A stretch of 64,000 nt of DNA from Pristiophorus japonicus (taxonomy: Eukaryota), in assembly GCF_044704955.1 (NCBI RefSeq), contig NW_027253674.1:434001-498000 (forward strand). Reading direction: 5' to 3'. The notes under the pieces are model-generated. The model was given only the letters and a program-made list of their open reading frames with translations, did no database searches and was not told the DNA's origin. A program made the translations under genes and the position numbers. Each line of letters begins with the position of its first letter. Position 1 is the stretch's first letter. Positions 5,270-50,802 of this stretch are shown piece by piece.

Positions 5270-5289
5270 ATTTGTGATGTGCCCTTTCA

Positions 5290-7962: not shown

Positions 7963-10945
7963 TTATTTAATACATTTAACAATTACAGTAAAGGGATATT
8001 TCACCACATTCTTCAACTCCTCTCTGAATTTCGACTGGGTCACGGCATAAATACATGTGTTGGTGCAGGAACTCAGGAGCTGAAGCATCAATCCCATTTC
8101 CTGTACATATTCAGGTAGATATACAGGAATAAAGTTTAACGAATACAATCGTTTAACCACAGAATATAACAGAAACACTGCCCATAACAGGATAAAATTG
8201 CCGGATATAACAAACAGTAAAATGATGGATTTCCTTCGCTTCTCCATCTCTGGGTCACTGGGAATCTCCCCACTGCTGTGGGCCCGGAGTCTCCTGCGGG
8301 CTCTGCTCGATACTAAAACGTGTCTGACAGTTAAAGTATTGAGCAGAAGGATCAGAACAAATGGAATAAACGGTGTTATAATATAATGAAGGAATTCAAT
8401 TACTGCCCATGATAGTGAGTCAGAGAATTTCCATGTAACAATACAAAACCAGGGACTATTGGAAATATTATACATACCTCCATACATAAAGTACCAGAAA
8501 GTGTTCTTTACACAGAACAGCGCACTCACTGTTCCCACAACCACAGTCGCCGTTTTCTCGGTGCAATATTTGGTTTTGAGCTTCTGACAACAAATGGCTA
8601 TACATCGATCAAAGGTAAAAGCAACTGTGAACCAGACGGAACAGTCTGTGACTGCGTAAAACAGGATGGCATGGATATTACACACTTTACTCTTCCACAT
8701 GAACTCAAACGCGGTCCAATAAAGAATAGAAATCTGCCTGGATATCAGGTCGAGGATAACGACCAGTAGATCCGCCGCTGCCATTGCCACCAGGTAACGG
8801 CTGACACACTTGGAGAGACCGCACCTTCCTCGAGACAGGATCATTATCGTCACTAAGTTCACTGCAAGAAAGAGAAAAACGGAATTTATATTTCAGATTG
8901 AGAGCAACAACAGCTGTCTCAAAGAATTATGTGTGAAATGTGTCAGGATTAAATGAACCAGCCAATGGGACGTGTGGTGTTTGGGTCAGGACTGATTACA
9001 CCAGCGGATGGGTCGTGTGGTGTTTGGGTCAGGACTGATTACACCAGCGGATGGGTCGTGTGGTGTTTGGCACAGTTACTGAAATAACCAATATATAGGA
9101 CGTGTGGCTGTCGGGATAAGGACTGAATGTACCAATGGATGGGACGTGTGGGTGTCGGGGCAAGGACTGAATGTACCAGTGGATGGGATGTTTGGGTGTT
9201 GTGACAGGGAGTGAGTGAAGCGGTGGATGTGATGTGTGGGTGCTGGGTCATGACTGAAAGAATTAATGTGTTGGACTTTTGCCGGGGTTTTAAAGCGCTG
9301 AATGAGACTAATATATAACGGCATATCCAAGTCAGAGTGAGCAATAATTCAGCACAAGAAGCCGCGAGTTTGTCAACAACCTGTGTCCATTGAGGGGAAT
9401 AGAGTCATTGTCCAGGGATGGGAATGTAGTCTGGGGACAGCGAGGGGAATGGAATCTGTATCCAGGGAGGAGAATGGAGTTGTGGGCCAAGGGAGGAATG
9501 GAGTCTGTGGCCAAGAAAAGGAATGGAGTCTGTACAGGGAGGGGAATGGAGTCTGTGGCCAAGGTGGGGAATGAAATTTGTTGCCAGAGAGGGGAATGGA
9601 GTCTTTGGCGAGATTATGGCGGTTGTGTCAAAGGCTGAAGAAGATGACTTGAATTGCATTATGTATCGAAATCAGAACCTTTCCAACAATTGTATTGAAA
9701 GTACACTTTGTAACTGGCTTAAGCTGACTTTCCAAGAATATTGCAAATAATCTTTAAAGAAGGGACTGTCGCTTTACAATAGACTAATGATGACCCATGT
9801 TGTATGATGTCACAGAGGATTTTCGAACGTGTCTGTTTACAGCTGGAACAATGTCAACCTGCTGCCTTTCACCTGGTATGAGAAAGTTACAGACTTCCAG
9901 TTGACAGAGAGAGTTTGAGACTGGAAATATTAAAATATTTCACAATATAGTGCTACATTTTGAATAGTTGCTACCGTGCGGCCCACACCGAGATCCCCTG
10001 AACTGTGGCTGAACAAGGGAAATAAATCAATTCAAGCACAACTGAATAAACATTTTACTGAGTCCGTATTGCAGTTTTAACCCTGTCCTGACCATCTGGA
10101 ATTAGTGACTGTGAGGCAGAGCGGGAGGCGGTGAAAATTACGACAACTGTCTATAGTGAATCATTAGTGGATAATGTCTCATATCTCAATGTATTTGTGA
10201 AGGGTCTCTCAACGCTGATTTCCACAGAGCAGTGTCATTAACAATAACCAGCGGTCCTTAAAACACGTATTACCGCTGAACACATATTTATTATCCAACA
10301 CTGGGCATCAGTGCAGAAAGCTGACTGCAAGCTGTTCAATAATCTAATCGTTCACTAACATATCTGTGTCAATAAAATCAAATTTCTGTCAAATCCTGTA
10401 AACCACTATTACTGGAAACAAGTTGTGGAAACAACACACTGTTTACTGAACTGGGAGCAGCGAGTCAGCAAATGATCAAACATTATATGACAGAAACTTC
10501 TGTGCATTGCCAGACACAGAACAAGAGGTTTAAATTGTGAAAACAACATACTGTTCATTGAACTGGGATCAGCGAATCAGCAAATTATCAAACATTACAT
10601 GACAGAAACTTCCGTGCATTGCCAGACACAGAAAACAGGTTTAAATTGTGAAAACAACATACTGTTCATTGAACTGGGAGCAGCAAATTAACAAATGATC
10701 AAACATTACATGACAGAAACCTCTTTTCATTGCCAGACTCAGAACAAGAGGTTGAAATTGAATACAATTAATAAGTAGAACTAAAGGACAAGGACAGAAA
10801 ATACAGAGAAACATGGGTTACATAATTAATTGCAGATGAAGGACTCACCAGGAACACCAACAGCAGCGAGGAGCGGGTAATAAATACGTTCCACTTTAAA
10901 AAATGCCCACAGGATCCAAAGCTCAGTTGGAATCTCCCAGAACAT
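7963..10945 (-). CDS. GPR139/GPR142-like class A GPCR, copy 1; exon 1 10849-10945, exon 2 7963-8861; 331 aa, intact
   Basis: Exon 1 encodes MFWEIPTELWILWAFFKVERIYYPLLAAVGVP and ends at a GTGAG donor. Exon 2 follows a pyrimidine tract and CAG acceptor, and the phases match. The protein is 7TM with MAAADLLV, FTFDRC (DRY variant) and NTCIY (NPxxY variant). Confidence 0.9.
8960..9250. repeat. Degenerate ~43-bp tandem repeat in the GPCR intron (paralog ~48860-49100 has one unit fewer)
   Basis: Unit ggactgattacaccagcggatgggtcgtgtggtgtttgggtca is repeated and then decays. Confidence 0.75.
9385..9620. repeat. Short degenerate tandem repeat with core GGAATGGAGTCTGTGGCCA (paralog ~49240-49470)
   Basis: The core recurs roughly every 25 bp. 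Confidence 0.7.
10430..10765. repeat. ~111-bp tandem repeat, 3 copies, in the GPCR intron (paralog ~50290-50620)
   Basis: acaaca.actgtt.a.tgaactggga...cagacacaga recurs at ~10431, ~10543 and ~10654. Confidence 0.85.
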
Positions 10946-11037
10946 GATTTGACTTTCTGTGACCTCCAATGAGCGCTGTTCGTTTTAGACAACAACTTCA
11001 GTCAAACATTGCTATACAGGCTGAAAGAAAATCCCTA

Positions 11038-11043
11038 TTTATA
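11038..11043 (-). promoter_or_regulatory. Putative TATA box of GPCR copy 1 (paralog 50895-50900)
   Basis: GGCTATAAATAGGG on the minus strand lies ~95 bp upstream of the ATG and is conserved in both copies. Confidence 0.55.
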
Positions 11044-11399
11044 GCCTGAGTGAACTCTCCAGTGAGACAATTAAACTGCACACTGAAGGATATTATTCAC
11101 AGTCACTGAATAAACAAGTTGTCCGAACCTTTTCTTTGCATCACTTTCAATTGCAAAATATCTTAAAAGCAACGTGGCTTTGAGATCAAATAACTTTATC
11201 CAAATCCAAGCACTATTTGTAAAAGCAGAAATAGTTAATTCCACAGAATCACAGCATGCATATGAAGGGAGCAACTTTCATTTAGGGAGTTTCTATTATT
11301 ACTGAGATGTAAAATAACTCTGTAATTTCAGATTTTCAATTCACTTCTCGGGGTAACACAAGTGAAATAAAACAAATGGAAGGATAGATGCAGGCTAAG

Positions 11400-12330
11400 T
11401 AAAGGTCAGTAACATGCATGGGGACTGACAGTACAGTGCTAATTAAGGATACATGGGCACTGATAAAACAATGGTCAGTAAAGATATATGACGACTGATC
11501 ATACAATGATCAGTAAGGATACATGGGGACTGATAATACAATGGTCAGTAAGGGTACATGGGGACTGATAATACAATGGTCAGTAAGGATACATGGGGAC
11601 TGATAATACAGTAGTCAGTAAAGATATATGACTACTGATCACACAATGATCAGTAAGGATACATGGGGACTGATAATACAATGGTCAGTAAGGGTACATG
11701 GGGACTGATAATACAATGGTCAGTAAGGGTACATGGGGAGGATAATACAGTGGTCAGTGAAGGTACATGAGCACTGATAATACAATGGTCAGTAAGGGTA
11801 CATGAGGAGGATAATACAGTGGTCAGTGAAGGTACATGAGCACTGATAATACAGTGGTCAGTAAGGGTACATGGGGACTGATAATACAATGGTCAGTAAG
11901 GGTACATGGTGACTGTTAATATAATGGCGAGTAAGGATACATGGGACTGATAATACAGTGGTCACTAAGTGTACATGCGGATGGATAATACAGTCGTCAA
12001 TTCGGATACATGGGGACAGATAATACAATGGTCAGTAAGGGTACATTGGGAAGGATAATAAAATGGTCAGTAAGGGTACATGGTGACTGTTAATATAATG
12101 GTGAGTAAGGATACATGGGGACAGATAATACAGTGGTCAGTAAGGGGATATGGGGCATATAATATATTGGTCAGTAAGGGTTCATGTGGACAGATAATAC
12201 AGTGGTCCGTAAGGGCATATGGGGGCAGATAACATATTGGTCAGTAAGGGTACATGGGGACAGATAATACAATGGTCAGTAAGGATACATGTGTGCTGTT
12301 AATACAATGGTCAGTAAGGATTCATGGCGA
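11400..12330. repeat. 35-bp minisatellite, ~26 copies (paralog ~51260-52150)
   Basis: Consensus gggactgataatacaatggtcagtaagggtacatg, arranged head to tail with no spacers. Confidence 0.95.
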
Positions 12331-12379
12331 CCTATGCCATACAGATAGTCACACGCCATGCTATTGTTTATTTTCCTCA

Positions 12380-14451
12380 GAGCAGGGAATGTAGAGACTG
12401 GAGGTGAGGAAAGGCGATGAAAGGAGCAGAGAGGTGAGGAGGGGAGAAGAGAGAGGACAGGAGGCGGGAGGGGAGTAGGCGAGAGGAGATGAATGTGGAG
12501 GAGAGGAGAGGAGGGGAATAGGAGAGCAGAGGTGAGGGGAGGAGATGCGTTGAGTGGAGAAGACAGCAGAGCAGAGTAGAGGATAGGAGGTGAGAGGAGA
12601 GGTTGGAGGAGGAAAGAGAGAAGATGAGCAGGAAGGGGAGGAGGGTTTAGTGGAGGAGAGGATAGAGGAGAGGGGAAGTAGAGAGGAGAGCAGAGCAGAG
12701 ATGAGTAGAGGAATGGAGAGGAGAGTTGATAAGAGGTAAGGAGAGGACAAGAGAGGAGAAAAGAGGGCAGAGGAGAAGATAGGAGAGGGGAAGAGAGGAG
12801 AGGAGGGGAATGGAGATGAGAGTGTAGGGGAGATGGTAGGAGAGGAGAGTGGAATAGAGGTGGGGAGAAGGTAGGGGAGAGAAGAGAGATGAGAGGTGAG
12901 AGGAGGAGAGGAGCGGAACGCAGAAGGGAGGAATGGATGGAAGTGGAGAGGGGAGAGAGGATGCGAGGGAAGGAGAGTAGAGCAGAGGAGAGGGGAAGGG
13001 CGGCGGGAGAGTAGAGGAGAGACCATCAGAGGAGAAGAGAGGAAGAGAGTAGGGAGAGCAGGGGCGAGAAGAGATGAGAAGGGAGGGGAGGAGAGGGGAG
13101 AAGAGAGGGGAAGTGGGGAGGAGAATGGAGGGGAGAAGAGCTGTGGAGAGTCGAGCAACGGAGAGGAGAGTAGAGGAGATGAGAGGAGAGAAGAGAAAAG
13201 AAGAAAAGGAGAGAGGAGGGTAGTAGATTAGAGGAGAGGAGAGGATGAGACATGGGACAAGAGAGGAGAGTAGAAAAGAGGGCAGGAGAGGAAAGAAGAG
13301 TGGGTAGTGGAGAGGTGAGTAGAGGTGAATGGAAAAGAGGGGTGGTGAAGTTAGGGGAGAGGAGAGGAGAGAGAAGACAATGAATGAGAGGAGGAGGTGA
13401 AAAGAGGGTAGAGGAAAGGAGAGCAGATGGGAGGAGAGGGTAGGAGGGCAAGGAGAGGAGTGGAGAAGAGAGGAGTGGAGAGGGTACAGGAAAGCAGAGG
13501 GAACGAGAGGAGCGGGAAGGAGAAGAGAGGGGAGAACATCAGAGGACACAAGTTGAGGAGAGGAGTTAAAATGAAAGGGGAGAAGAGGTGAGACGGAGGG
13601 GAGAGGAGAAGAGGGGAGAATTTAGGGGAGCGGAGTAGAGATGATTGGAGTGGAGAGGAGAGTAGAGATCGAAGCGACTTGAAAACAGGGGGGAGGAGAG
13701 GATAGAGGAGGAGAGGAGATGATTGGACATGAGAGAGCAGAGGAGATGAGAGGAGAATCGAGGAGAGGAAAGGGGAGGAGAAGAGGGTCGGGTGAGGGGA
13801 GAATGGAATAGAGGCATGGAGAAGGTAGGCGAGAGGGGAGAAAATGAAGACATAAGAGAGTTGAGGAGAACAGCTGAAAGGGGAGGAGAGTTGTGTAAAG
13901 GCGGGGAGATGGGAGAGGAGAGAGGAGAGAACGGGAAAACAGGTGAGAGAAGTGGAGAGGAGAGAGGAGGAGATGGGAGAAGGGATGAGCCGAGTGGAGA
14001 GGATAGAGGAGGAGAGGGGAGAGGAGGAGAGAAGATGAAAGGAAAAGGAGGTGAGCAGAGGAGAGAGGAGATGAGAGGAGTGTGGAGGAGAGGGGAGGCG
14101 AGAGGAGGAGAGTTGTGGAGAGGGGAGGATAAGAGGGACGAGCGGAGAGAGGAGGGTAGAGATGAGCAGGGAGGGGACGAGAGTGTAGGGGAGGAGAGGT
14201 GAGAAGAAAGCAGAGCAGGGGAAAGTAGAGGAATGGAGAGTAGATGTGATGAGAGGAGAGGAGAGGAAATTGGAGTGAAGAGGGGAGGGGATTAGAGGAG
14301 AGGACTGGGCAGGGGACAGGAGAGGGTAGGGGCGAGGGTAGGAGAGGAGAATAGAGTAGAGGAGGGGAGAAGGCAGGGGAGAGGAGAGGAGACGAGCATA
14401 GGAGAGATGTGAGGAGAGAGGAGAGGAGAGGGGAGGGGTGAGGAGGGGAGG
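12380..14451. repeat. ~2 kb polypurine (GGAGA-like) low-complexity tract (paralog ~52200-54282)
   Basis: The plus strand is almost purely G/A. The Ser/Pro/Leu-rich ORFs here are artefacts of this composition. Confidence 0.95.
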
Positions 14452-15099
14452 TGTTGGGGTAAAAAGGAGGCTTCTCTCCTTTAAGGTGGACTAACTGATG
14501 TAGTTAAACGACATCTCGCCCAGCTTCCCACTGTATAAAGACCAAGGAAGTAAACAAACGAAACCTCAGGTTTATTGGTTTTATTCCGAGCAATGCACGG
14601 GAAGGTTCAATCTTGGAACCTCTGAAATAGAAGGGTTTTCAAGCATAATTTATACAGGTGTTGGAGAGGAGCTTTCCTCCTGAAAAATCATCGATAGGTC
14701 TATTGCTATTAGCGAAGTTACATTGATTTGTTGACTCTTATCAGACGGGCTGTGAGTGGTACATGCAACTGCCCATCTCTCATCTTTGTTTTGTTCCATT
14801 TTGCCCTCTACCCCAGTCTATCCGATGCCTGGTATGGTTGTCCTGGCTTCTTTATCTCTTCTCAGGGACTTGTAAAGAAAACTGCTGATTTTGGCTAAGG
14901 TTAAGCTATAATATACTGCGTATAAGTGTGTTACACCTTTATAAGCAAGTGTTACATACATAGGTAATTGATAAGTTCACAACCTTCAGCATAATTCTGA
15001 CCCCATATCTACAACCTTATTATTTATCCTTTACAATTCCCCCTAATGGCCCTTGGCTATATGCCCAAGATAGGCCATTTCGCAATTAATTCCACATGG

Positions 15100-17130
15100 G
15101 TGAGCTTCCAGGGGTGACCTTTCACTTGGGTAGTGCTACTTCCCAAGCTCCTGGACCTATCTGTTGGTTTTCCCATCAAGGTTATACTAAGTCCTTTCTG
15201 CCGGACTGTCTGATTTCCCTTTCTTCAATATTTTATCCATAGTACGGACTAGGGCCTGCCTCTTACGTCGGTTACAGCTTTTTAAAGGATAATACTAGCA
15301 AGGTGAGTTCCCTTGCACTACAACCAGTACATTGAGTGCAGCATAGTTCGTGTATAATTCCTTTCTAGCCAATATTTTCTCGGTGTTCGAATTATGCCCC
15401 GCCTGGGGTATCCTCTCTTTCTTCTATTTTTCCTCCACTTGGGGTCTTCTCTATTCTACCGAATTCCTGCCCTGCCTGGCGTATCCTCTATGTTGTCGAA
15501 TGGCGTTCAATTCAGTCCAGTTTGTTTCTCGTTCAGTTGGAGTATTGGTTTTCCTTGTTGTCCGATGGCCTTCACATAACCTCCTCAGGTACTGTCCATC
15601 ATTGCCCCGTCGATCTTTCCTCCTTTAGCTCAGGGGTTGTAATAAACCCATTTATATCTGTCTCGTCAAGTGGAGTAAAGCAGAAGTCAATATCCATAAT
15701 GGTGCATGAGGTGTTCCTTTCTTCATTTCAGTTGCCGTGGTGCTCACACATCAATCTCCATATCCTCGTGAAACAGCGATAATTTTGTAGTCCTGTGTTA
15801 GTGGGGGTGATGCTCAAGGTGCACCCGTCCACTTGGTTATATCCACAGTCATCTTTGATCATTCGTAGTGGATCTCGACATAAAGCAACTTGGTTATTTT
15901 TATAACAATCTATATATGTTGAGACTCTTAGTACTGTTGTTCTCTTCAATTACATTTCTGGTTTGTCATCATACCACACGCGAGTTTGATTCATTTTTAC
16001 TCCTACATTGTTTGATGTAGAGTATCTACCATTGTCACATCATACTGTCATATAGATAATAAAAAATCTATTTAATGTGCGGTAACACAGCTGGCCTTTG
16101 AAACCCAAGCATGACTGTTTCTCTGAACCTCGCAGGCATGAGTCATGTTTTTGTCTAAGGTCCAGTTGGTAAATATATCGAGTGTTATCCAATCCGGCAC
16201 CTTTCCAATCTGAAGCTTTTCAATGTTATGTTGTATTCCATTCAGCAACCATACTCCATATCCTACACATACTAGTTCTGTCTGTATGGTTTTACTTAAG
16301 TTCGTTTCTGCTCTATTCATTTATATTTCTGGCGTGGTCTCGCAATGTGTGGGCCAGTTTAATAATTCCCTTTCTGCGCCATTACCCAGTTGTGTCTGTA
16401 ACTTTTCATGATTCTCATCCCTTTCCAGCAATCGCTGTAAGGTTTGTGTTTGGGCATTAACTCGATCATCTATCGTGTCTGGCTCTATAGGTTGCAACTC
16501 CCGCAACGTATCCCACCGTATACCATTTCTAGCATCCCTCTTTTTCCCCTGTCCCGTTTTTTACCTGACCCTCTTTCGACAATAAACTTCATGGTTTTGG
16601 ATTCAGCGCCTTTAGTGCTCGAAGGATCATGTTTCTATACAGGCTTATACTGTTTAACCCGCAGATGTTGGGGTAGCTTTATTGTTTAATTTTAGGAATA
16701 CAGTAATTATTCGCTGAAGTACCCTGAAGTGTATCTTATCCTTGGTCTACCTTATCAATTTCTCTTTTGCCCCAGTGTTCACAGTTGGACACGTTTGTGG
16801 CGCTGGGGGTGTGATGGTCGAGGCCCTGGTAATGCTCACTGTTGCTAAACTAGTGGATGGGACCGTGTTGGTGGGTCTATCTCTGGAGATATCCCTCCAC
16901 CACCATTCATAGATGTTAGTGAAATCTGCACCCCCTTCCCCTGTTGCAGTATGTTTGTCCCTCCTGATTATAAAACACACCGCGGTCTTATTCCCACTAA
17001 TTATGGTTCTATATTATTGGCTCATCCCCAATGTTGTTTCGTTTCCTTGTAACGTTGTTTTATGCCCGTTATTTAACTCTACTGTTGCTCCGTCCGACAC
17101 CATCAGTGTTTTTGATGTTTTATTAAACTA
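15100..17130 (-). pseudogene. env: ERV-A env remnant (paralog ~54950-56970)
   Basis: It lies between IN and the PPT. A furin site RGKR at 16539-16550 is followed by GMLEMVYGG, a heptad region and Cys-rich segments (CYKNNQVALC..DCGYNQVDGCTL). There are many stops and frameshifts. Confidence 0.75.
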
Positions 17131-17258
17131 ATGTCGCCCAAGTCCCTGTAATACAGGCCTTGCCATCCCTCAGTCTGTTGTCCCTGATATGAGGCTGCGT
17201 TACTCCACGTTATTTCCACGAGCTCTCGAGTCCTGCAAAAAGCAATATTTTCCGGTCG

Positions 17259-19760
17259 TCACTGGTTAGTTAGTGACCATGCTTTTTTAACTGGGTCCAG
17301 AGTTTCCACTTGCCGATACTCCTTATAAGTACCATAACTTACCATGATTACCTGATAGAGACCGATCCATTTGGATGCGATCCCGAACCTCTCTGGGGTA
17401 ATCTCTTGACTGCCTATTTGGGGTGTTTGGTATTTCTGTTTCTTAGTGTCATTCTCTAAATCCATCACCAGCATCTGGACATCAAGCTTATCATGTTGGT
17501 TCTACCTGTATGGACATACCCGTGGTATAAATTTAATAGGCTCCCCTGGATGCATTCCGGGGCCACCACATTCCCATCTTTTCTCCATATCCCGTTGGTC
17601 CCTTGTTTGACCCATCTCTGCTTCCACTCCTCCTGTTCCTGCGGAGTGGCCTCTCCCTGTACCTCAAGCATATTTACTTCCTCAGGCCCAATTTTACATG
17701 CTCTGCCTTGGGCTTCCCCGGCCAGTGTACCTGCCACACGCTTGGCTGCTTCATTTGTCCATGCATTCCCCTGTTCATACTGATCATTATTTTTTACGTG
17801 TACTTTGATCTTTATTATCGCACACTCCTGGGCTAGGAAGGAGGCTTCCACTAGATGTTTCCCAATCTCCTCATGTTTAATCGGTCCTCCTCCTGAGGTT
17901 GTGTATCACCGTCTGCTCCAGGCTATCATATAATCATGCTCTACTCCGAAAGCATATCGACTGTCTGTATAGATATTTACTCATTTTCCCCCAGCAAGCC
18001 TCAGAGCCTCAGTGAGAACCACTAATTCAACCACTTGAGCTGATAGATTCTCTTCTAACCGTCCTTCCCCTTTGACCTGACCGCTGCGATCTACCACGAC
18101 CCATCCTGTCTGTGGTGTCCCATTGATATAGCGCCGAAACTCATCTACATTTCGATCCATGTCTGCCTCCTCAAGCAGGGTTTCACTTGCCTGACTACTT
18201 CCCTCATCTTCTGTTGTGCTACACTGATGCTCCTCTCCCTCTGTAATGATCCACCCTGCAGACGTCTTTTATTATTGTTACCGTCCCGTTGGGTGGGGTG
18301 GGGGGTGGCGGGAGAGGAGGGGGGAGAACATTATTTACCACCTCGCCATTTGTGCATCGAATACATTTTTAGCCTTCCAGTGTTAAGTTATTCTACTAAT
18401 GTACGCTGGGTATGTAGAATAATGCACCCTGACATTATTATTGGTTCGTTAACTCTGATGGCCCAAGCCGCACAGTCGAGGGCAGCAACGCACCTGGACA
18501 GTCCTGCAGCTACAGGTTGCGGTTTATCTGAGTAATATGCCACGGTCTATGCCTGTCGCCATGTAATTGAATCACTACCGCGTTATAATGATGGTTAATA
18601 TGGTAGGTATAGACGTGAAAGGGCCTATTCTGGTCTGGTAGTCCCAGGGCTGGAGCAGTTGTGAGAGTTTGTTTTAACCGCACACATGCAGTTTCTTGAT
18701 CTAGGCCCCAGTTTACTGGCTCTTAGGAGGGTTTCCACCCTTTGACCTGTTTCTGTATAGGTTAGGCCACCTTGGCATATTCGGGAATAACATTTCTGCA
18801 GTAGTTTAATAACCATAGTACCTGCCTGACCCCTTTCACGGTTCCTGGTCTGGGGATTGATTGAATTGTTCCATACTGTCCTCGGGCATCTGTCTCTTCC
18901 CTTCCGATATTATGTATCCCAGATATGTTACTTCGCTCCATCTTTCTCCTAAGTCTACTGGTTCCAAAATCATTGACAATATTCGATGAAATATGCTCCA
19001 GCTGTTATTGAATCCCAGTGGTACCTTCGCCCATGTGTATTGTTATCCATTTACCTTGAAGATAAATTTTCCTTGAGACTCTTTGGCTAAGGGAATGGTC
19101 CAAGTTTCATTCACTATATCCAGCATGGTGAATATCTTATGATCTGGATCCAGGCCATTAAATATTGTGGCTGGACTTGCCACTATTGGGTGTTCTCCGG
19201 AAGTCAACTTATTCAGGGTGGTATAATCGATAGTCAATCGGTAAGACCTGTCGGGTTTCTTCATCAGCCACACAGGTGAATTAATGGAGGCTATTATATG
19301 TTTCAATATACTTTGCTCCTCTAATTCATGCACTATCTGACAGACCGCTACCTCAGCTTCGGGTGTTAATTGGAACTGTCGGTGAGCTTTGTGTTCGGGT
19401 CCAGGAATTTTGATGGGTGATATCTCTGCTAATCCATAATCTTGTTTGCATTGTGCCCACAGAGTCGGGTATAATTGGCACACGCTACCCCATACACCCT
19501 TTGTTTCCCACTCGGGTTGGATTACGGTTGTTCCTACCACTCGTTGCTGCTGGTGTCCCGGGTTTTCGAACTTAATTCGGTTTCGTGCTTATCTCCCAAA
19601 ATTATCCGATTACACTGAAGAGCTATCAGTACCCCTATCTCCCTTAATGTATCGCTGCCTTCTGTATGCCTTCTTTATGTTGCCTTCTGTATTCTGACAG
19701 CACCAAAACTGAACAGGTAGCATAACCCCTGTACTTCGACAACACCATCTCACTTAGGGT
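17259..19760 (-). pseudogene. pol: ERV-A pol remnant (PR-RT-RNaseH-IN) with internal deletions (paralog ~57093-59600)
   Basis: RT motifs NSPVWLMKKP..YRLTIDY..LNK and LDI.N..W.IPL are present, as are the linker LTSAPALGLPD (read from the paralog), RNase H GNAWTNEAAK, the IN HH motif YHGYVHTG and C-terminal KWIGLYQV. Confidence 0.9.
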
Positions 19761-19829
19761 TGCTTTCTGATATCCCCCACTCTCTCCTTGTATGTTGATG
19801 GTCCTATGGGTCAGGGGCAAATCTAAGTT

Positions 19830-21000
19830 GGTTATTGGGTGTTCTCGGGTTGGGGCGGTGGTGGCCGTGGTACTAGTGGTGCTGGTACCTGTCTGAGCAT
19901 GTCCATCAGATCTTCCCTGGTTAATGGTATTCCCTTCTTTGCCTGTTTGTGGTCTCGCCATCCAGCGCCTTCCTCATAACTCCAGCAATCTTTGGCCAAA
20001 TGTCCAAGTTTACCACAATTTTGACATGTCCCTTTAGAATTGCTGTAACGTCTGCTTTTCTGCAGGCAATCCCTACTGAAGTTACCTTCCTGATTGCAGT
20101 GTAAACATATCAGTGGAGCTGCGCGGGAGTCTGTCTCTTCCTCCTTCGTCTCTGCTGCTAACGCTGTTGCTGCTATTTTTGCTCATTTATCCCTTGTTCT
20201 AACTTTAACCACTCTACATGTTCTGCCCATTCCAAAGTTTCATCATAATCATCTCCTGTCTTAAATACTCACTTAATTATCTTTAGATGTGCCTTTCCTA
20301 GTCCATCCTTAAACATTTTCAAGAATGCTGCATCATTTCTGTTGCGGTCATCAGACCCAGAGTGGTTTTTGTATTCAATCCACTTTCGTTCCCCGTACTC
20401 CCCAACCTTTTTCCCTGCCTTTTGAGTCACAGTATTCTACTCCAGTCTTTTGTCAGAGTTCTGTATCTCTACTATTTTGCTTTAGCGGGTGGTAACTTAT
20501 TCAATAGAATTTGTCTCCTGTGGGCTGAGGGGCACCTCCTGTATGGTAATGTGGGCTGCTCTACATCCGCTGGAGCGAATGGTGGTCGTGCGTATCAGTG
20601 CCACTGATAAATAGCCATTATCATGTGCTGGGGCCCCTCTACTCCAAACTCATTATCCCTGTCTGATTGACTGTTGGGTTGGGGTTGTGGACTGCACTTA
20701 CCCACCTTGGGGTACATTATCTCTATTACCGTAGGTGATGGTGCTATGGTTGTGCTCTGCACTATCTATCTGGTCCTGTCTTTTTCTCTGCCAGCTTATT
20801 TATCTTAGCTTCTAACTCTTGAATTTGATGTGTTTAAGTATCTATCTGTCCTCTGTAGCAGGTGAGTCTTATTACATAGGCTTTCTTCGTTTTGTTTTCA
20901 TTCTGAATATCCCCACATTTCTTCTGTCTGTCAGGTGAGTCTTTTTTCTTTTATTAAGAAATCCAAACTAATAATGTCCAGTATAAAATATCTTTCAATG
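19830..21000 (-). pseudogene. gag: ERV-A gag remnant with two zinc knuckles (paralog ~59664-60800)
   Basis: Paralog ORF 59664-60059 reads CLNCNQEGNFSRDC and CQNCGKLGHLAKDC. An N-terminal coiled-coil QIQELEAKINKL is also present. Confidence 0.82.
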
Positions 21001-22221
21001 GAAAGGGTAAACTCCACTACAGGTTTGTAAGAAGGTCTGGCATCATTACGTGACTTCGGGTATCCATCTGAAAATATTACCCCAAGTCTTTGTGCTTTCA
21101 AAACTTGATAAGAAATTAGGAATCCGTTAAAATAGCAGATATTGTTGGTAAAGTTGTCAAAATAAAACTTTCTCAGCGGGAAAGGCAGCATTTTAGATTA
21201 AACTCCAATTTCTCTACACATCCAATTCAAATACGTGCCAACGAGTTTTTCATTGATTTAAAGCGAGACCACACATTTTAATAGCTATTTTGTTTACAGA
21301 AATCCAATTTCCACGCAAGCTATATACATTCCAGCATTTTGTTTTTTTATGGTCCCGTTCACTGAGCAAATCTTGTGTTTTATTTCTCTCGGCACAAAAT
21401 CTAAACTTCGGTGCCGGTCCATCTTTTTAAGAATCCTGTAATTCCCAGTTTTTTCTTTCTGTGCTGAGTTCACATAGCTTAGATCTTTTCCCCCTTTTGA
21501 ATCTGAAATTAATCATTTTTTGATGACCTTACTCCAGTCCATAGTTAAACATCTTTGTTTCTCTTCCTCGGCACAAAGCGTTGTCGGGTTTAACTCATAA
21601 GTTTTTATATTTCAACCAATATCCTTTTCACAGCCAATTTAAATGTCGTTTCTTCAAATTAGGTTTTGTATTTTGATGATCTTCCTCCAGTCCATTTTGC
21701 TCAACATCTTTGTTTCTCTGCAGCTTTCAAGGTCACATTTCTATCTTTTGATAAAAACAAACTGTCCTTTGTAAATTCAATTTGATATCCAACATTTTTC
21801 TTTTCTTTTATTAATTTTCCATTTATCTCAGCGAGCATTTTATCCCACTGGCCAGTTTTCCTAGGATCCTGGGGTCCCACCCCACGGTTTAGGTTGTATT
21901 CCTTCTTGTTTGCACCGCACACGATCAATACCAGCTTCACTGTGTGATTACCACGTCATGCTTCAGGACATACACCTTATATTTCCCATAACGATCGCTG
22001 GGGTCCACTCCCCATGCGGTTGCATTCCTTCTTTCTCAGGCATACACCTATCCCACCCTTGGTTTTCAGCCATCTGTGGTTCGTTATAAGTTGTCCTACA
22101 GCTGACCCCTTCAAATTCTTTATACAAATTAACTCCTTCCCCGTCAATGCTACAGCTGCATGTGGTAAAAAACATGCTCACTACCATTTAGCTGTCACGT
22201 GATCCAGGTCGGAAGGTCTGC

Positions 22222-24241: not shown

Positions 24242-24249
24242 TGTTTGTA

Positions 24250-25901: not shown

Positions 25902-25959
25902 TTTATTGTTTTTTATTTAAGGACTGAAATGCAATCGAGACATTCTCATTGACAAGAAT
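25902..25959 (-). pseudogene. Displaced end of the IgM secretory tail (N)SCQ-stop plus poly(A) signals
   Basis: The minus strand reads AT TCT TGT CAA TGA at 25946-25959, with AATAAA at 25902-25907 and 25912-25917. This completes the tail ...LMDTF cut at ~32623. Confidence 0.8.
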
Positions 25960-31717: not shown

Positions 31718-31733
31718 GGTCCTTGTGCATGAA

Positions 31734-36518: not shown

Positions 36519-36639
36519 CTTCACGAGAAGGCATTTTATTGACATTGCTTGCAAAATAAATGATTAAGAAATGCAAAGTGTCCTTATATTTTAACTAGTT
36601 CTTTGCTGTCTGATTCACACTAACCTGACATTTGCAGAG

Positions 36640-36975: not shown

Positions 36976-37014
36976 CACCTTATCACAGTTTGCCCTGTAT
37001 CCCACATCATTAAC

Positions 37015-41630: not shown

Positions 41631-44600
41631 TGTAAATCTCCTCTGTCTTCCTTCTTTGTGTCTCAGCTTCCTGTCTTACTCCCTTGCTCCTGATGTGTCA
41701 CTAGTTATTCTCAGGATTGTGACTACAAATCTTATTTACAACGCATTAGTCTTGTGGCTAATTTTTTCTGGCAGGTATAGGGCTGATTAATTTATGCTCA
41801 CAGGTAACATTTCATTCTGCACATTGTCAAATAACAACATTACTTTTGTCCCAAGTTTAACTACCACGCAATTTCCCAAGCTAAATTCCCCTGGTTTACA
41901 ATATTCAGGTAACATTTTTTACACACTTATCTTGTGGCTTCAAGACAAATGCTCCTGACACTTAGATGCCGCCCCCTAGAGGCTGCTTTACGTAGTTGTT
42001 GTACCCTCCGCTGTGGTTAAATGCTTCTGGGCCCCCTCGGGGCGGCCTTGTAGCTTGTCCTTGTAGAATCGGAAGGACGGTGATGATCACGATTATATTC
42101 TGTTGATAAAACACATCCTGGATAATCCAGGTTTTAGTTAGAGTCTTACCATTTCCATTTCAACCGGATTTTCCTTTCACTAGCCACTGTATTGGTTCTG
42201 CAATTGCTGTGGTTAGGCACAAAATTCCGACAATAGCTAACGAACTCCAGTACATTACAAACCCCTCAGACTGCTTTTGGTCGGGGCATAATCCTAATGT
42301 CCTCCTTCCTGTCATTGGACATGGTCCGAGTTCCTTGGGATATTTCGTGTCCCAGGTACTGTACCACAGCTTGTCCGATGTGTGCCTTTTTGGGATTTAC
42401 TTTAAATCCTGCTTTCCGTTATCTCAAATATATTTTTCATAACTAGAACAGAGTCTAGCACGGAGGCTTTGATAGCTGCTTTCTGTTATCTCACATGTTC
42501 CAGTTTCAAAGCCTTTCCGTCTCAGTTTCTGTGGTTCTTCAACCACTGTATCTGAAGTCACAAGTTCAACTTATATTTTCCTTTGTGCTTAACTGCTAAA
42601 GCCTGCCGTTTTAACATTTAATTTTTTTTTAAATTCGTTTTACGCTTTCGCAGATAGCTCCCCACTTGCCCAGGAGTTTGACCTGATCCCTGAAGGTATT
42701 TATACATTGTTTTCAAACATTATAGTTTTATTTATTTTTTGTAAGAGAGCAGATTTAACTTTTTATTTTAAATGTATCTCATTTTGTTGTGTATTTACTA
42801 AAACAGTGGTACTTGAAATCTTCACAACAAAATTAACTCTTCACTGCTCCCATCCTAATTTCTGCTCCCCTTTTGTAGTATTTGTATTTATTGTTGAATT
42901 TTGAAATGTCAAATATGGTAATACTGTTTTTTAATCGGACTTATCATTTATGCTTATGGTGATTCACAGATCACAGAATGCAAAGTATTGTTTTGTAATT
43001 ATGTACCTAACTTCTGTTTTAGAAGCTGAACATCAAAAACTCCAATCTTTTGCGCTGTAACTTCAATTTTGTGATACAGTATCTCATAAATTTAATCTTT
43101 TTAAGCTTCAGCTTCTGACGCAATATGTTAACTTTTATTAAAAGTCTTCCAAACCCAAGATTTTCCAATACAACCAAAATGTTTATCAAGGAGAATCACC
43201 AGAAATATCTCAAAATCCCAATTCAAATATGCCAATCTTTTATTTAAAAATCATATTACTGAGCTAGAAGCTTTCGCATCAAGATTTTACACAAAGAAAT
43301 ATGGGGGCGTACTTCCCCAGCCCGCAGCCTTGAGACACCCACGCAGGATTCTTTTTTTAAGGCATTACAATTTCCCTTCTCCATTCTTTATCTCATTCCT
43401 AGACTAAATGTATTGTCTTTCAAACAAATGTAATCAATGATTACATGTTTTCTTTTGACAAGTGAGCGTATCGAAAACATTTTTTTAAAACCATCGGGAC
43501 CACACATTTTTTATCTTTTGCTCAACAAACCTATCCTTTGTGCATTTCCTAGCTCCATAATATATCATCTGAATAAATCCACACCTGGGTTTCTAAATTA
43601 AAATGTAATTCAATTCTATGTTCACACTTTCTTAAAACTTCCTTCATACAGGACAACACTGCAAAGGGCTAAAACAAATTCACTCTGTCTGAAAAAGTAG
43701 GTGGGGCCATAACAACAGACAGCTCTACCACTTTCTGGAGCAGGCTTTCAGACACCTGAAAAATTCATTAATTCCCACCTCAAATATTCCGCATTCAAAA
43801 ATCACACAAGCACTTTCATTCAAAGACAGACATTCACAACAATCTCTCTTCATTCAACAAAGTTTATTGTTTGGCCGGCTCTATTTTTGTATCCATACTT
43901 CACTTAAGATAGTCACTAACAGTTTTTGTTATGGACTTCCGAAAAATATCTACTAAGCTACTCTTCTGGCACCCAATCAATACTTTATTTTCCTCAGATC
44001 CTAATCATAACCCTTTTAATGTGACATACAAATTTGGGCCAAATTCCTCTGTCCATTCCCTTCTGTCATCTATATCTATTTTTATACTTACATCTTGTTG
44101 TCTTGTGTCACTTTCTCTGTCCATCTCACCTTCGGGTATCTTTCTATTCATCTTTCCGGCTGTTAAAATTATCTTTTTCCCTTCATCATATCCTGCCTTA
44201 ACCATCTTCATGACCTTTTCAGATTTATCTCTCAGAAACTCTTCTGGTAGTTTATACCTCAGCCCTCCAAGGGCCTTGGCAGATTCCTTTGCCATTTCAT
44301 ACATTGGGGCTTTTTCTCCAGTTCCTGTTTTACCATCTTTACTTAAGCAGAACTTTTTAAACCAAGGCTTTTTACCGAGTGCTGTTTTTCCGCCTTTACT
44401 TATGTGGAACTATTTACACTGAGGCTTTTTCCCCGATATCCCGTATACGTACTTATTGTACCGACATTTAGTGTATTTATTTACAGTGTCCTGACGCGCC
44501 CCTCAACTGGATTTACTGCTGCATGGACTCAAGCTCAGATTCGTTGGATCTCTGGTTACTTTGCGAGGAGAATTTCTCAAGGTAATTCTCTACTCACTCG

Positions 44601-45183
44601 TTATTCGGTTGGTTTGGCTTTTTGAGTCTAATCTGCCCGTCCAGTAGATCCTGTTGACTGTGCCACGTTGTTAGAGTTAACTTTCAAACCACCACTCGGA
44701 GTCCGTTAGCCTTAAAGTAAATGCAGTTTTAATTAATAAAAGATTCAAGCTGGAAGGGGAGCTATCCTTGAATGAATGCTCAGAGAAACTGCCAGAGACA
44801 TCTTATTTTATACAGTTTCAGATTATAGCATTACGTAATTACGCAAGTTACAATTAATACGTGCTGATTGATTATTACATGATTATCTGGTAGTTTGCTT
44901 CCTCCAATCTGCCCTCTATATGTTTAATTAGTAAGTCAGGATACATGTTGTTATGAATCTTTTTATTTAACTTGTATCTTATTACAGAATTCAAATTCTA
45001 TGTTAGCTGTGTCTGTGCCCAGCTCCCAAGGCCTTTGGTCTATGAATTGGAACATCTGCCCCTCTGCGGAAAGCATCCCACACATGCTTCTCACAGTCTG
45101 AAAAACAGGCTGTGGGATCCATTTTAAAAATCTGTTAACTCCATTTTAAAACATCTCAATTATTATTATTAATTGTAATTACA
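41631..45183 (-). mobile_element. ERV-C copy 2 (PBS 44648-44665, LTR ~44669-45183), truncated at the duplication breakpoint
   Basis: Paralog of 1795-5269. Leader ORF 44005-44304 is nearly identical to 4190-4432. Confidence 0.72.
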
Positions 45184-47857
45184 ATTTGTGATCTGCCCTT
45201 TCAGTCTATTATGCGGTATCTAATCGAAGGCCTTTGGAAATCTAGATAAATTACATCTACTACATTACGTTAGTTTACGCTATCTGTTACTTCTTCGAAA
45301 AATTCAAAGAATTTGGTCAATTCAAGACTTTCCCTTTTCTTATCCATGCTGACTATTCATTTATGGTTTCTAGTTTTTCTTCCAATTTCTCCTTTAGTAG
45401 GGAATCCATTATTTTTCCTCCCAACGACGTTAAGTTGACTGGACTATAGTTCCTCAGACACGTTCTACCTCCCTTCTTAAAAATAGGTATTACATTAGGT
45501 ATCTGCCAATCCTCCGGCACTGCACTTTATTCTACCTAAATATTAAATATGTTTATTAATGCCTCTGCTATCTCTTCCCTCGATGTAATTTGTCCGAATC
45601 CGGCATTTTATCCATTTTCGGTTTGATTAGTTTATATAATATTTTCCTCTTGTTATTTTAAATGCAGTTATTTCATTTCTAATATCATCCAATGTCATGT
45701 CCACCTGTGTTGACTCCCTGATAAATACTGATGCAAAGTAATTGTTTAATATTTCTTCCTATCTCTGCCTGTGGACAACCTTGTGAGCCACGTACCTTGG
45801 TATGTATTGTGGATTCCTCCTCGCAATCTTTATCCTTATCGTTGGGCAGGAGCTGTATCTCATTCTCAGTCTCTCCTCAGTTCTCGCTACACGGCACTCA
45901 ATCAGCCACGGACTTTCCTGAACCTGCGTTTTTCTGTGCGATGTGACTGTTTTCTGGATGAAATCACTTATCATGTGTGTTTCAGAGTGTGTCGAGTTCG
46001 CACTCCAGCCCAATTACCCTGAGCCAGAGAGAATAAAGCAGAGAGAATAAAGCAGAGACAGATTTGATGTCCACAAACTCACACACATTAATGTCTCGAA
46101 TCATTGCCTGCCCTGCCATCTTTAGTTATTTTTTATAAATTTATTTGCTTATTTACACACTGAATTAATTTAATTACTTAGTTTTTATTCAAATGGTTAT
46201 TTATAATTATATTAATTAATTAGTAATTATAGTTAAATTATTAATTTAATAAAGTATTGTTATTGCTCCCAGGTCTTAGTGTGAACCAAGCTTCGAGAAA
46301 AAAGGTAATACTCACCAAACGTTCATCTACCTGCTGTATTTTGGAGGCCAAAGCAGCACCTCCTTCAACCACTGTTATCATACCAACTTTCACCAAATTC
46401 CGTTTAATATCACTGTGCAGAACACACTGTGAATCAGCAGTTAGTGTTTAGTTTTATACCTTTGGAGCCACACACAAGTTACAAGTGCTGTCTCAGCTCC
46501 ATGCACATTGCTCGCAGTAATTAGCACATATTTAAGACTAACACTTACAGCTGACTGATAGTTAACTACCACTAAGAGGCAGTTTCTGCTAACTTCTGTA
46601 TTTAAAGTTCTAAGTTCAATTCAAAACGTTAATCTAAATTTCCCTTCTTACAGCTAATACTCAGCTAGACTCACGTCGGACTTACCACTGAATCTCACTT
46701 TCTCTACGTTCCCAAGTTTACCACTCTCTTTGTGCATTCCGTTTAAGATCTGGATGTGGTGATAGAGTAAGTTTTGACATGTTCTGCTGGGCTGAAAGAG
46801 TCGGGGTGGGGAATGTCGCTCTGTAAATTTGCAGTCCACAGGCAGACGGGCTGCTAACTCCCAGCACCCCCAGGGAAACTTCAGGGGAACGCCTCAGACC
46901 AGTTTGCAGCCGCGAGCACCGAATGGCCTATTTCTGTGCTGCAGACATTAAGTAACTCTATGTAAAGTGATGTGTGAAGGAGAAGGGATGTCTGAAATGC
47001 GATTCTGGGTCAACCACAGACTAGGGCGTTGTCAGAAGGGCAGGTCTGTGATGTCACAATGCTCAGGCACAGTGTCATGCGAGTTTCCCCGCTTTATTAC
47101 ATCACACATACTGCAATACCTAGCAACAAAGCTCGTTACCACCCTCCCTGAACACTGCATATTATGGGCTATGTTTAACTCGGAGATTTTACAGAGAGTG
47201 AGGAGGAGCTGTTGTGTGTGGCGTGTTTGCGGGGATCACTTCATCCTGCAGATCACCGCATTGTTCAGGCAAACTTACAAAGGAACGTTATAGTGGTGAA
47301 TGTCACTGGGGCATACTCCGTCTGCAGGAGACCCTTTAATCCCAAAGGTAGATTATCTGAAACAAGGATACGTCGCTATCACCAGGCGTTGGGGCTGCTC
47401 AGGTTAAACCCCATTGGGAGAAAAACATAAGGAGCCTGGAAAAGGATGAAAGCACTGACCTTTGAGCCTTTGAAACCTTCCCTCCCTGGCTGTTGTTTGG
47501 TCCCAGGCCATTTCCATCCAGCTTTCCCTGGGAGTGCTGGGGACTGAGCGGCCCGCCCGTGGACTGTGCAGTAACAGAGCCACCTTCCCCGTGCTGCTCC
47601 CTTTGGGTAAACACATCCGACACGAGCCTGGCGGTCGGGAGCTTTATAAACCCGTCCCAGGCCGCAGCAGACGTCTTAGCGGGGATAAAACCTGCAGGAG
47701 TCCAGCGGGACTGATCTCCGTGGACTTCCCCACCACTATCATTTTTGTTAGTCGCTGAATCCGCGCGGTGAAAGATGAAAACAGGCCTCACTGTGTGTGT
47801 ATAACAGAGATGAGCGGATTGGGCAGAACACCCGCCCAAAACATTGTGTGATTCTTA

Positions 47858-50802
47858 TTATTTAATACATTTAACAATTACAGTAAAGGGATATTTCACC
47901 ACATTCTTCAACTCCTCTCTGAATTTCGTCTGGGTCACGACATAAATACATGTGTTGGTGCAGCAACTCAGGAGCTGAAGCATAAATCCCATTTCCAGTA
48001 CATATTGAGGTAGATATACAGGAATAAAGTTTAACGAATACAATCGTTTAACCACAGAATATAACAGAAACACTGCCCATAAGAGGATAAAATTGCCGGA
48101 TATAACAAACAGTAAAATGATGGATTTCCTTCGCTTCTCCATCTCTGGGTCACTGGGACTCTCCCCACTGCTGTGGGCCCGGAGTCTCCTGCGGGCTCTG
48201 CTCGACACTAAAACGTGTCTGACAGTTAAAGTATTGAGCAGAAGGATCAGAACAAATGGAATAAACGGTGTTATAATATAATGAAGGAATTCAATTACTG
48301 CCCATGATAGTGACTCAGAGACTTCCCATCTAACAATACAAAACCAGGGACTATTGGAAATATTATACACACCTCCATACATAAAGTACCAGAAAGTGTT
48401 CTTTACACAGAACAGCACACTCACTGTTCCCACAACCACAGTCGCCGTTTTCTCGGTGCAATATTTGGTTTTGAGCTTCTGACAACAAATGGCTATACAT
48501 CGATCAAAGGTAAAAGCAACTGTGAACCAGACGGAACAGTCTGTGACTGCGTAAAGCAGGATGGCATGGATATTACACACTTTACTCTTCCACATGAACT
48601 CAAACGCGGTCCAATAAAGAATAGAAATCTGCCTGGATATCAGGTCGAGGATAACGACCAGTAGATCCGCCGCTGCCATTGCCACCAGGTAACGGCTGAC
48701 ACACTTGGAGAGACCGCACCTTCCTCGAGACAGGACTATTATCGTCACGAAGTTCACTGTAAGAAAGAGAAAAACAGGGAATTTATATTTCAGATTGAGA
48801 GCAACAACAGCTGTCTCAAAGAATTATGTGTGAAATGTGTCAGGATTAAATGAACCAGCCAATGGGACGTGTGGTGTGTGGGTCAGGACTGATTACACCA
48901 GCGGATGGGTCGTGTGGTGTTTGGCACAGTTACTGAAATAACCAATATATGGGACGTGTTGTTGTCGGGACAAGGACTGAATGTACCAATGGATGGGACG
49001 TGTGGGTGTTGGCTCTGGACTGAATGTATTAGTGGATGGGATGTTTGGGTGTTGTGACAGGGAGTGAGTGAAGCGGTGGATGTGATGTGTGGTTGCTGGG
49101 TCATGACTGAAAGAATATATGTGTTGGACTTTTGCCGGGATGTTAAAGCGCTGAATGAGACTAATATATAACGCCATATCCAAGTCAGAGTGAGCAATAA
49201 TTCAGCACAAGAAGCCGCGAGTTTGTCAATAACCTGTGTCCATTGAGGGGAATAGAGTCATTGTCCAGGGATGGGAATGTAGTCTGGGGACAGCGAGGGG
49301 AATGGAATCTGTGTCCAGGGAGGAGAATGGAGTTGTGGGCCAAGGGAGGAATGGAGTCTGTGGCCAAGAAAAGGAATGGAGTCTGTACAGGGAGGGGAAT
49401 GGAGTCTGTGGCCAAGGTGGGGAATGATGAAATTTGTTGCCAGAGAGGGGAATGGAGTCTTTGGCGAGATTATGGCGGTTGTGTCAAAGGCTGAAGAAGA
49501 TGACTTGAATTGCATTATGTATCGAAATCAGAACCTTTCCAACCATTGTATTGAAAGTACACTTTGTAACTGGCTTAAGCTGACTTTCCAAGAATATTGC
49601 AAATAATCTTTAAAGAAGGGACTGTCGCTTTACAATAGACTAATGATGACCCATGTTGTATGATGTCACAGAGGATTTTCGAACGTGTCTGTTTACAGCT
49701 GGAACAATGTCAATCTGCTGCTTTTCACCTGGTGTGAGAAAGTTACAGACTTCCAGTTGACAGAGAAAGTTTGAGACTGGAAATATCAAAATATTTCACA
49801 ATATCGTGCTACATTTTGAATAGTTGCTACCGTGCGGCCCACACCGAGATCTCCTGAACTGTGGCTGAACAAGGGAAATAAATCAATTCAAGCACAACTG
49901 AACAAACATTTTACTGAGTTTGTATTGCAGTTTTAACCCTGTCCTGACCATCTGGAATTAGTGACTGTGAGGCAGAGCGGGAGGCGGTGGAAATTACGAC
50001 AACTGTCTATAGCTGAATCATTAGTGAATAATGTCTCATATCTCAGTGTATTTGTGAAGGATCTCTCAACGCTGATTTCCACAGAGCAGTGTCATTAACA
50101 ATAACCAGCGGTCCTTAAAACACTTATTGCCGCTGAACACATATTTATTATCCAACACTGGGCATCAGTGCAGAAAGCTGACTGCAAGCTGTTCAATAAT
50201 CTAATCGTTCACTAACATATCTTGTGTCAATAAAATCAAATTTCTGTCAAATCCTGTAAACCACGATCACTGGAAACAAGTTGCGGAAACAACACACTGT
50301 TTATTGAACTGGGAGCAGCGAGTCAGCAAATGATCAAACATTACATGACAGAAACTTCCGTGCATTGCCAGACACAGAAAACAGGTTTAAATTGTGAAAA
50401 CAACACACTGTTCATTGAACTGGGATCAGCGAATCAGCAAATTATCAAACATTACATGACAGAAACTTCCGTGCATTGCCAGACACAGAAAACAGGTTTA
50501 AATTGTGAAAACAACATACTGTTCATTGAACTGGGAGCAGCAAATTAACAAATGATCAAACATTACATGACAGAAACCTCTTTTCATTGCCAGACTCAGA
50601 ACAAGAGGTTGAAATTGAATACAATTAATAAGTAGAACTAAAGGACAAGGACAGAAAATACAGAGAAACATGGGTTACATAATTAATTGCAGATGAAGGA
50701 CTCACCAGGAACACCAACAGCAGCGAGGAGCGGGTAATAAATACGTTCCACTTTTAAAAATGCCCACCGGATCCAAAGCTCAGTTGGAATCTCCCAGAAC
50801 AT
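47858..50802 (-). CDS. GPR139/GPR142-like class A GPCR, copy 2; exon 1 50706-50802, exon 2 47858-48756; 331 aa, intact
   Basis: Same exon structure and splice sites as copy 1, with an open frame. Exon 1 encodes MFWEIPTELWIRWAFLKVERIYYPLLAAVGVP. Confidence 0.9.

Follow-up and report, generated by a model that had tools for sequence, protein, structure and literature searches.

Two intact GPR139-related receptor genes of Pristiophorus japonicus represent a young, cassette-borne shark subfamily with a conserved core and a variable predicted pocket rim

A 64,000-nucleotide stretch of the genome of the shark Pristiophorus japonicus (RefSeq assembly GCF_044704955.1, contig NW_027253674.1, positions 434,001 to 498,000 of the forward strand; hereafter the window) carries two intact receptor genes, copy 1 and copy 2. 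Their sequences mark them as members of a recently multiplied shark subfamily of class A receptors, in which a conserved core is combined with a variable predicted pocket rim; we give about an even chance to the reading that this subfamily is a chemical-sensing repertoire, probably of olfactory-type neurons. Across the family, purifying selection on the receptor core is clear, and a modest diversification at a few rim sites is probable. Taken alone, the pair is unremarkable among family members and carries little statistical weight.

The receptor pair and its family

Both genes lie on the minus strand and consist of two exons that together encode 331 amino acids in 996 nt: exon 1 (97 nt) runs from the ATG to a GT donor, and exon 2 (899 nt) from an AG acceptor to a TAA. 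No stop or frameshift was found inside either 996-nt reading frame, and the splice sites are canonical, in agreement with the first-pass annotation, which had called both copies intact. The gene features are the following (window coordinates; TM, transmembrane helix):

7963..8861, minus strand: copy 1 exon 2 (V33-K331 and stop), from the second half of TM1 to helix 8; Pfam 7tm_1, E 2.5e-18
8862..10848, minus strand: copy 1 intron (GT..AG), containing 43-, 50- and 112-bp tandem repeats
10849..10945, minus strand: copy 1 exon 1, with the ATG, the N-terminus and the first half of TM1
47858..48756, minus strand: copy 2 exon 2; Pfam 7tm_1, E 7.3e-18
48757..50705, minus strand: copy 2 intron
50706..50802, minus strand: copy 2 exon 1

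The coding sequences (CDS) of the two copies differ by 21 single-base changes in 21 codons, of which 19 are nonsynonymous and 2 synonymous (V216 and L257), exactly the count reported earlier; nonsynonymous and synonymous divergence amount to dN 0.025 and dS 0.009. The excess of amino-acid changes, previously described as suggestive (p ~0.07), comes to p 0.095 when 2 synonymous changes out of 21 are set against 23.7% synonymous sites, and is not significant for the pair. The residues quoted for extracellular loop 2 (ECL2; M/V162 and TWKFSD/RWEVSE) and for ECL3/TM7 (EYVQEMGL/QYVLEMGF) are present, but their clustering is not significant: 7 of the 17 amino-acid changes in exon 2 fall in loops ±4 residues, which hold 24% of the codons (p 0.086), and two other loop definitions, with 5 and 8 of the 17, give p 0.12 and 0.10. 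At 2.1%, the CDS are neither more nor less diverged than the introns and the DNA upstream, which show 1-4% per 500 bp across about 7.5-18 kb. At 14 of the 19 exon-2 differences both codons are present in other paralogues, the remaining 5 being private, and the copy 1 patch K177/F178/D180 is fully common to a sister copy (L002). Since these differences occur elsewhere and the gene lies within a mosaic tract, described below, the pair does not serve as evidence of selection. Nor does the decay of every neighbouring open reading frame (ORF), which had been contrasted with the intact receptors: the neighbours are indeed fragmentary, RVT_1 being matched by 5 of 8 scanned ORFs other than the receptors, and because they are reverse-transcriptase remnants their decay carries no information on the receptors.

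The proposal of an expanding receptor repertoire was borne out at the level of the family, which shows birth-and-death turnover. A six-frame search of the P. japonicus genome (5.9 Gb), in which 131 of 3968 candidates were scored, gave 126 candidates at 85-100% identity and 5 at about 71%, while an exact 28-mer occurs at 131 genomic places and yielded at least 39 new loci among the 100 matches listed. The young subfamily comprises at least 165 close copies, mostly on the 68-Mb contig C23, where most lie at 13.9-66.7 Mb in both orientations, often 34-43 kb apart. Exon 2 is intact in 106 of the 165 and broken in 59 (including all 39 loci found from DNA only), and at least 24 broken copies descend from one frameshifted ancestor. 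Minus 4 copies with exon 1 defects, the intact set holds 102 copies with 92 distinct sequences and 85 distinct proteins, exon 1 having been examined for few of the copies L002-L030 and some small-contig copies being possibly haplotypic. For the wider family, a degenerate TM3 pattern is found at at least 821 genomic places (reversed control 0), and the 100 matches listed are spread over 12 large contigs. Among 2468 database relatives, the best 120 all come from sharks and are nearly all machine-named GPR139 ("probable G-protein coupled receptor 139"); their best identities are 88-94% in Pristiophorus, 83-85% in Heptranchias, 78% in Heterodontus and 66-68% in Scyliorhinus. Relatives extend across shark genera, so the lineage is old in sharks and the burst recent.

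Among the close database relatives, the gene models P0003, P0004 and P0009 have N-termini unlike the 97-nt exon 1, and P0007 and P0008 are named cysteinyl leukotriene receptor 1-like; because models carry such divergent N-termini and names, name-based family counts are unreliable. A description of the family was not found in the literature, with subscription papers and one supplement beyond the reach of the search, and neither PMC11979771 nor PMC10620051 mentions GPR139 in its main text. The contributions of this analysis are the young subfamily carried by the cassette, the mosaicism of its copies, an estimate of selection controlled against neutral DNA, and the finding that site tests fail.

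Receptor class, predicted pocket and selection

By its sequence, the family is class A (rhodopsin-like) among the G protein-coupled receptors. Both exon-2 frames score 65-67 bits against 7tm_1 (gathering cut-off 30.5) and matched no family-specific Pfam domain of olfactory receptors (OR), TAAR, V1R or V2R. An AlphaFold2 (AF2) model with a predicted local distance difference test score (pLDDT) of 64 contains the TM helices and helix 8; the top Foldseek matches are all class A, the ESM Atlas agrees with class A and the machine label, and neither set of matches contained a pointer to the ligand. With Ballesteros-type positions inferred from motifs and a GPR139 alignment, N1.50, D2.50, C3.25-C45.50, D-R3.50, P5.50, W6.48 and N7.49/Y7.53 are each kept in 90-92 of the 92 distinct sequences, P6.50 is replaced by V and P7.50 by T, and the NPxxY motif reads NTCIY. 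The residues R74, H96, D105, E188, H191, W259 and E287 are kept in 82-92 of the 92 close copies and in 104-111 of 111 distant paralogues, the latter figure being biased upward because the 111 are top matches; positions 6.58, 7.32 and 7.35 are variable in both sets. Codon 119 (3.51) is a subfamily marker, the subfamily having D-R-C and 109 of the 111 distant paralogues D-R-F.

The best sequence match in the PDB is human GPR139 (7vug, 9m42), a weak one (E 1e-6), and its score of only 31.5 bits argues against orthology. W6.48 and the TM5 histidine (H187) are kept and N5.58 is shared, whereas F3.33 is replaced by Y, E3.32 by L and E3.29 by A. R6.51, which according to the available text of PMC8807744 is found in GPR139/142 alone and is required for activation, is replaced by F in all 92 copies and by F, L or Y in 111 of 111 distant paralogues; N7.38, listed in the accessible part of PMC5430874 within the Trp/Phe site of GPR139 (F3.33, H5.43, W6.48 and N7.38), is F, C, L or S. 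On these comparisons the genes are GPR139-related and are probably not GPR139 orthologues. The link to amino-acid sensing by GPR139 was not supported, R6.51, N7.38 and E3.32 being replaced, and Trp/Phe sensing is not to be assumed. GPR139 is a single-copy gene, unlike the hundreds of copies in the shark family. Formyl-peptide receptors (FPRs) and MRGPRs likewise belong to class A and have each, in one lineage, grown into a sensory or immune repertoire; none is among the 4 PDB sequence matches.

To define a neutral baseline, we compared coding sites with noncoding DNA in 78 intact copies, after 14 of the 92 were dropped and 226 cells masked for non-homologous or truncated flanks; an initial baseline of 0.074/0.077, inflated by such copies, was discarded. 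With the outer face taken as the loops of the AF2 model ±4 residues, 0-fold diversity is 0.084 there and 0.027 elsewhere, 4-fold diversity 0.049 and noncoding diversity 0.060 (flank 0.055, intron 0.068). Relative to noncoding DNA, 0-fold diversity is 0.46 in the core (confidence interval, CI, 0.34-0.59), where purifying selection is clear, and 1.41 on the outer face (0.99-1.87). The earlier idea of a diversifying repertoire is supported at family level in that variation is concentrated on the extracellular face, while the pair itself is no evidence of selection. The 4-fold diversity of exon 2 lies somewhat below that of the intron with overlapping intervals; more conversion inside the exon, or constraint acting on synonymous sites, may account for the lower value.

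Modest diversification at a few rim sites is probable. Tri-allelic sites make up 10 of 145 on the outer face and 15 of 1187 in noncoding DNA (p 1.3e-4), with p < 0.05 in 10 of 12 settings. Among recurrent codons, 269 has 6 and both 90 and 283 have 5, a value reached by 0 of 1183 noncoding triplets. Common nonsynonymous variants per site number 0.18 outside and 0.045 in the core, against 0.084 for synonymous ones (p 0.015), whereas rare variants are close to neutrality in all regions. The p-values of the tri-allelic and variant comparisons are optimistic because alignment columns share one genealogy. Variability at these sites extends to the 111 distant shark paralogues (Spearman 0.45). Neutral behaviour is seen in the frameshifted clade, with an M0 omega of 0.94 and a likelihood-ratio test statistic (LRT) of 4.9.

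Codon site models, the check proposed with the initial claim, were strongly positive without being discriminating. The code used here reproduced the IQ-TREE M0 estimate (omega 0.77), and for the 92 sequences the LRT was 154 for M1a/M2a, 188 for M7/M8 and 149 for M8a/M8, and 29 with site-rate variation. Yet in 78 matched copies an M1a/M2a analogue gave 83, 105 and 49 for pseudo-codons of intron and 3' flank against 124 for the CDS, and, with rate variation, 19.5, 37.0 and 5.9 against 29.4. This null is imperfect, as it has no true codon structure, uses FastTree trees and capped optimisation, and covers the M1a/M2a analogue and not M7/M8. Because noncoding flanks of the same copies score alike on that analogue, M7/M8 is unreliable in this family, and the site models were rejected as proof of selection.

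Duplication cassette and putative promoter

The two genes are carried by a duplicated block with the following features:

1795..22156: first copy of the shared duplication block, with about 94% identity to 41631-61978; belongs to a 34-43-kb receptor cassette
41631..61978: shared duplication block, second copy, mosaic with respect to copy 1 and the cassette at C23:33.4 Mb
11404..14436: 35-bp minisatellite and GAGGA-type satellite upstream of copy 1, cassette cargo
51261-54267: 35-bp minisatellite and GAGGA-type satellite upstream of copy 2, cassette cargo

Divergence between the block copies is about 5% on the 3' side of the gene, 1-4% over the gene with its upstream 7 kb, and 6-10% past that point. 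In a three-way comparison, copy 1 and the cassette at C23:33.41 Mb are about 99% alike over the whole block, and the private differences of copy 2 number 30-51 per kb in the 3' flank, 4-25 in the gene and upstream tract and 41-93 at the far end. We infer that the lineage of copy 1 donated about 10 kb to copy 2, through either conversion or unequal crossover. The argument for recombination rests mainly on this mosaic; among the 78 intact copies four-gamete incompatibility is 30-39% at all distances, and a PHI-like test gives p 0.018, yet r2 is flat against distance. The cassette contains the two-exon gene, its promoter, satellites and transposon remnants; it was copied to at least 165 places, and distant loci have most of it in common at 94-95%.

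Several further observations concern the duplicated DNA. Decayed reverse-transcriptase fragments, which we take to be of LTR/retroviral type, occur in both block copies (19043-19588 and 58800-59582, minus strand; RVT_1 E 1.3e-6 for the second). LINE-type reverse-transcriptase fragments lie at 288-947 and 25928-27139 (plus strand) and 28174-31217 (minus strand), and the GC-rich element at 28-32 kb is presumably Tx1-like. On C23, the frameshifted copy has been multiplied at least 24 times (24 loci within L133-L168, e.g. 17.38, 26.69 and 52.69 Mb); this clade, with no exon 1 match within the 3 kb examined, offers a natural neutral control, and its members often lie about 17 kb from another frameshifted copy (e.g. 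26.677/26.694 Mb; 140-kb repeat steps). Multi-gene arrays at C23:25.68-25.76/29.75-29.83 Mb and 26.59-26.97 Mb are apparently duplicated, inverted or in 140-kb tandem steps, and contain the near-identical exon 2 pair L024/L025 and the duplicates L042 = L043 = L170. At C19:45.1-45.2 Mb, exon-2 matches of L236 and L237 lie about 6.8 kb apart within 10 kb, far denser than the 35-40-kb cassette.

A putative promoter precedes both genes:

11036..11044, minus strand: copy 1 TATA-like box, nearly invariant in 53 intact copies
11056..11073, minus strand: copy 1 homeodomain site TAATTG and degenerate EBF(O/E)-like site, matching 6 of 8 defined positions of YCCCNNGGGR
11108..11116, minus strand: copy 1 TGTTT(A/G)TTC box, presumably forkhead-like, kept in distant paralogues
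50893..50973, minus strand: copy 2 promoter, with TATA-like box (50893-50901), homeodomain and EBF-like sites (50913-50930) and TGTTT box (50965-50973)

From about 165 to 90 bp upstream of the ATG, the order is the TGTTT(A/G)TTC box, TAATTG joined to TCTCACTGGAGA, and then TATAAATA; the YCCCNNGGGR consensus is that given in the available text of PMC8213819. Of 22 distant loci, 6 yielded an exon 1 and 16 none within reach, and in 4 of the 22 the best match of the 101-bp element lies just upstream of exon 1 (z 4.6-8.3). These four paralogues, on contigs C7, C9, C19 and C20, have 47-68% protein identity, and one promoter match pointed to an exon 1 that the hidden Markov model (HMM) had missed; at a fifth locus the promoter aligns by eye in a multiple alignment. 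Matches at L236 and L237 (z 3.6-3.7) were rejected, as they precede LINE-like DNA, and of 15 control stretches one reached z 3.0. A degenerate promoter and TATA pattern occurs at 136 places; among the 100 matches listed, all are on C23 and the distant subfamilies are not reached. In the accessible text of PMC5608512, PMC8213819 and PMC7804114, mouse olfactory enhancers are marked by a homeodomain site next to a degenerate Ebf site, and the putative homeodomain, EBF-like and TATA promoter of the shark genes hints, by analogy, at olfactory neurons.

In five presumed-RNA runs of other organisms, contigs on exon 2 mostly show < 95% identity, and no joint spanning the intron was found, some loose ends having intron-like acceptors. 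Three sequencing runs whose kind is not established cover the intron and flanks too.

Competing explanations and meaning for sharks

In the mechanism we favour, the 34-43-kb cassette would have been spread and shuffled by unequal crossover and gene conversion, with selection retaining the signalling core and the near-invariant polar deep pocket formed by R74, H96, D105, E188, H191, W259 and E287. Rim sites 269 (= 6.58), 283 (= 7.32), 90, 77 and 79 would diversify somewhat faster than neutral, and each receptor may recognise its own variant within a single class of ligand, for which peptides or amino-acid derivatives are a guess. Expression would be in sensory neurons under homeodomain/EBF control, a prediction from the promoter only. 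The family resembles the OR, TAAR, V1R-ORA and V2R-OlfC repertoires in its clustered birth-and-death, many pseudogenes, short N-terminus and variable extracellular face, and its putative homeodomain and EBF-like promoter resembles OR elements. Unlike the vertebrate chemoreceptor families, it has a coding intron in TM1 and matches 7tm_1 only. OR pockets vary, whereas the deep pocket of the shark family is nearly invariant.

Several points weigh against a diversifying olfactory repertoire, and some of them favour passive amplification, in which an unstable segmental duplication multiplies largely redundant copies while the fold is conserved and the loops drift neutrally. We regard this explanation as unlikely, although it is the most serious of the alternatives. 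The outer-face excess is modest, at 1.41 times noncoding diversity with a CI touching 1 and only 1.24 times that of the intron alone; the tri-allelic comparison is not significant in 2 of the 12 settings, those with unpadded loops (p 0.37 and 0.21); and the site-model signal is mimicked by noncoding DNA. Many young copies may be drifting, given an overall omega of 0.74-0.77 and the near-neutrality of rare core variants (0.295 vs 0.355 per site). Amplification does not require selection, as one dead gene was copied 24 times; 59 of 165 copies are broken, which also speaks for the passive reading. Residue positions, moreover, rest on motifs and a model of pLDDT 64. As for the nasal assignment, no more than 6 of 8 positions agree in the EBF-like half, TAAT motifs occur commonly, and the promoter is absent in one (L229) of the six distant paralogues with a located exon 1. 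Catshark olfactory neurons are all microvillous and do not express OR genes according to the available text of PMC10116579, so that expression in the nose does not necessarily follow from an OR-like promoter. Against purely passive amplification stand the excess of multi-allelic and common nonsynonymous variants at rim codons, counts not inflated by between-site recombination, and the hypervariability of the same positions in four shark genera; since the outer face also contains invariant residues, an average at or above neutral implies that some sites lie above it.

An immune or barrier sensor, that is, a variable FPR-like set on leukocytes, skin, gill or gut for microbial peptides or metabolites, appears improbable. 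A conserved polar deep pocket with a variable rim, rapid birth-and-death and gene conversion would suit host-pathogen receptors, and EBF factors are also active in B cells; however, the diversification is weak for an arms race, and no immune gene is present among the ORFs scanned in the window. The adjacent homeodomain and EBF-like arrangement also resembles olfactory elements, as far as the accessible text of PMC5608512 and PMC8213819 describes them. Slightly more improbable still is a sensory or neural function outside the nose (taste buds, solitary chemosensory cells of the skin, brain neurons) or one in sperm or gonad. In its favour, the closest relative of solved structure, GPR139, is brain-expressed according to the available text of PMC5430874. 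The family has hundreds of copies with variable rims, which argues against this function. Such copy numbers and rims are atypical of central neuropeptide receptors, while homeodomain and EBF sites act in many neurons. That the two copies are haplotypes of one locus, as an assembly artefact, is very improbable: the window lies on a 655-kb contig, and small-contig copies identical to C23 copies (L054 = L053, L047 = L046, L061 = L062) suggest that part of the 165 may be haplotypic, but the pair is in tandem, with flanks that differ by 4-10% and different end points, copy 1 has 10 differences from a C23 pair and 19 from copy 2, and the 34-43-kb spacings recur along C23.

Beyond the favoured reading of a chemical-sensing repertoire, we tentatively advance a bolder possibility, to which we give somewhat less than an even chance: a fifth shark olfactory receptor family derived from the GPR139/142 lineage, with many hundreds of genes, still expanding via a 35-40-kb cassette, in which a fixed deep anchor and a variable rim would tell ligand variants (e.g. 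peptides) apart. Standard codon site tests give false confidence in gene-converting arrays of this kind, and the subfamily's distinct proteins, about 85 in number and set apart by a few rim sites, form a natural deorphanisation panel. Cartilaginous fishes have only about 10-50 receptors of the four olfactory families in the accessible text of PMC10116579, a number that the family, if olfactory, would far exceed. Sharks have large noses and few recognised ORs, and a family of at least 800 intact and decaying receptors that have an olfactory-like promoter would be a direct candidate for the missing repertoire.

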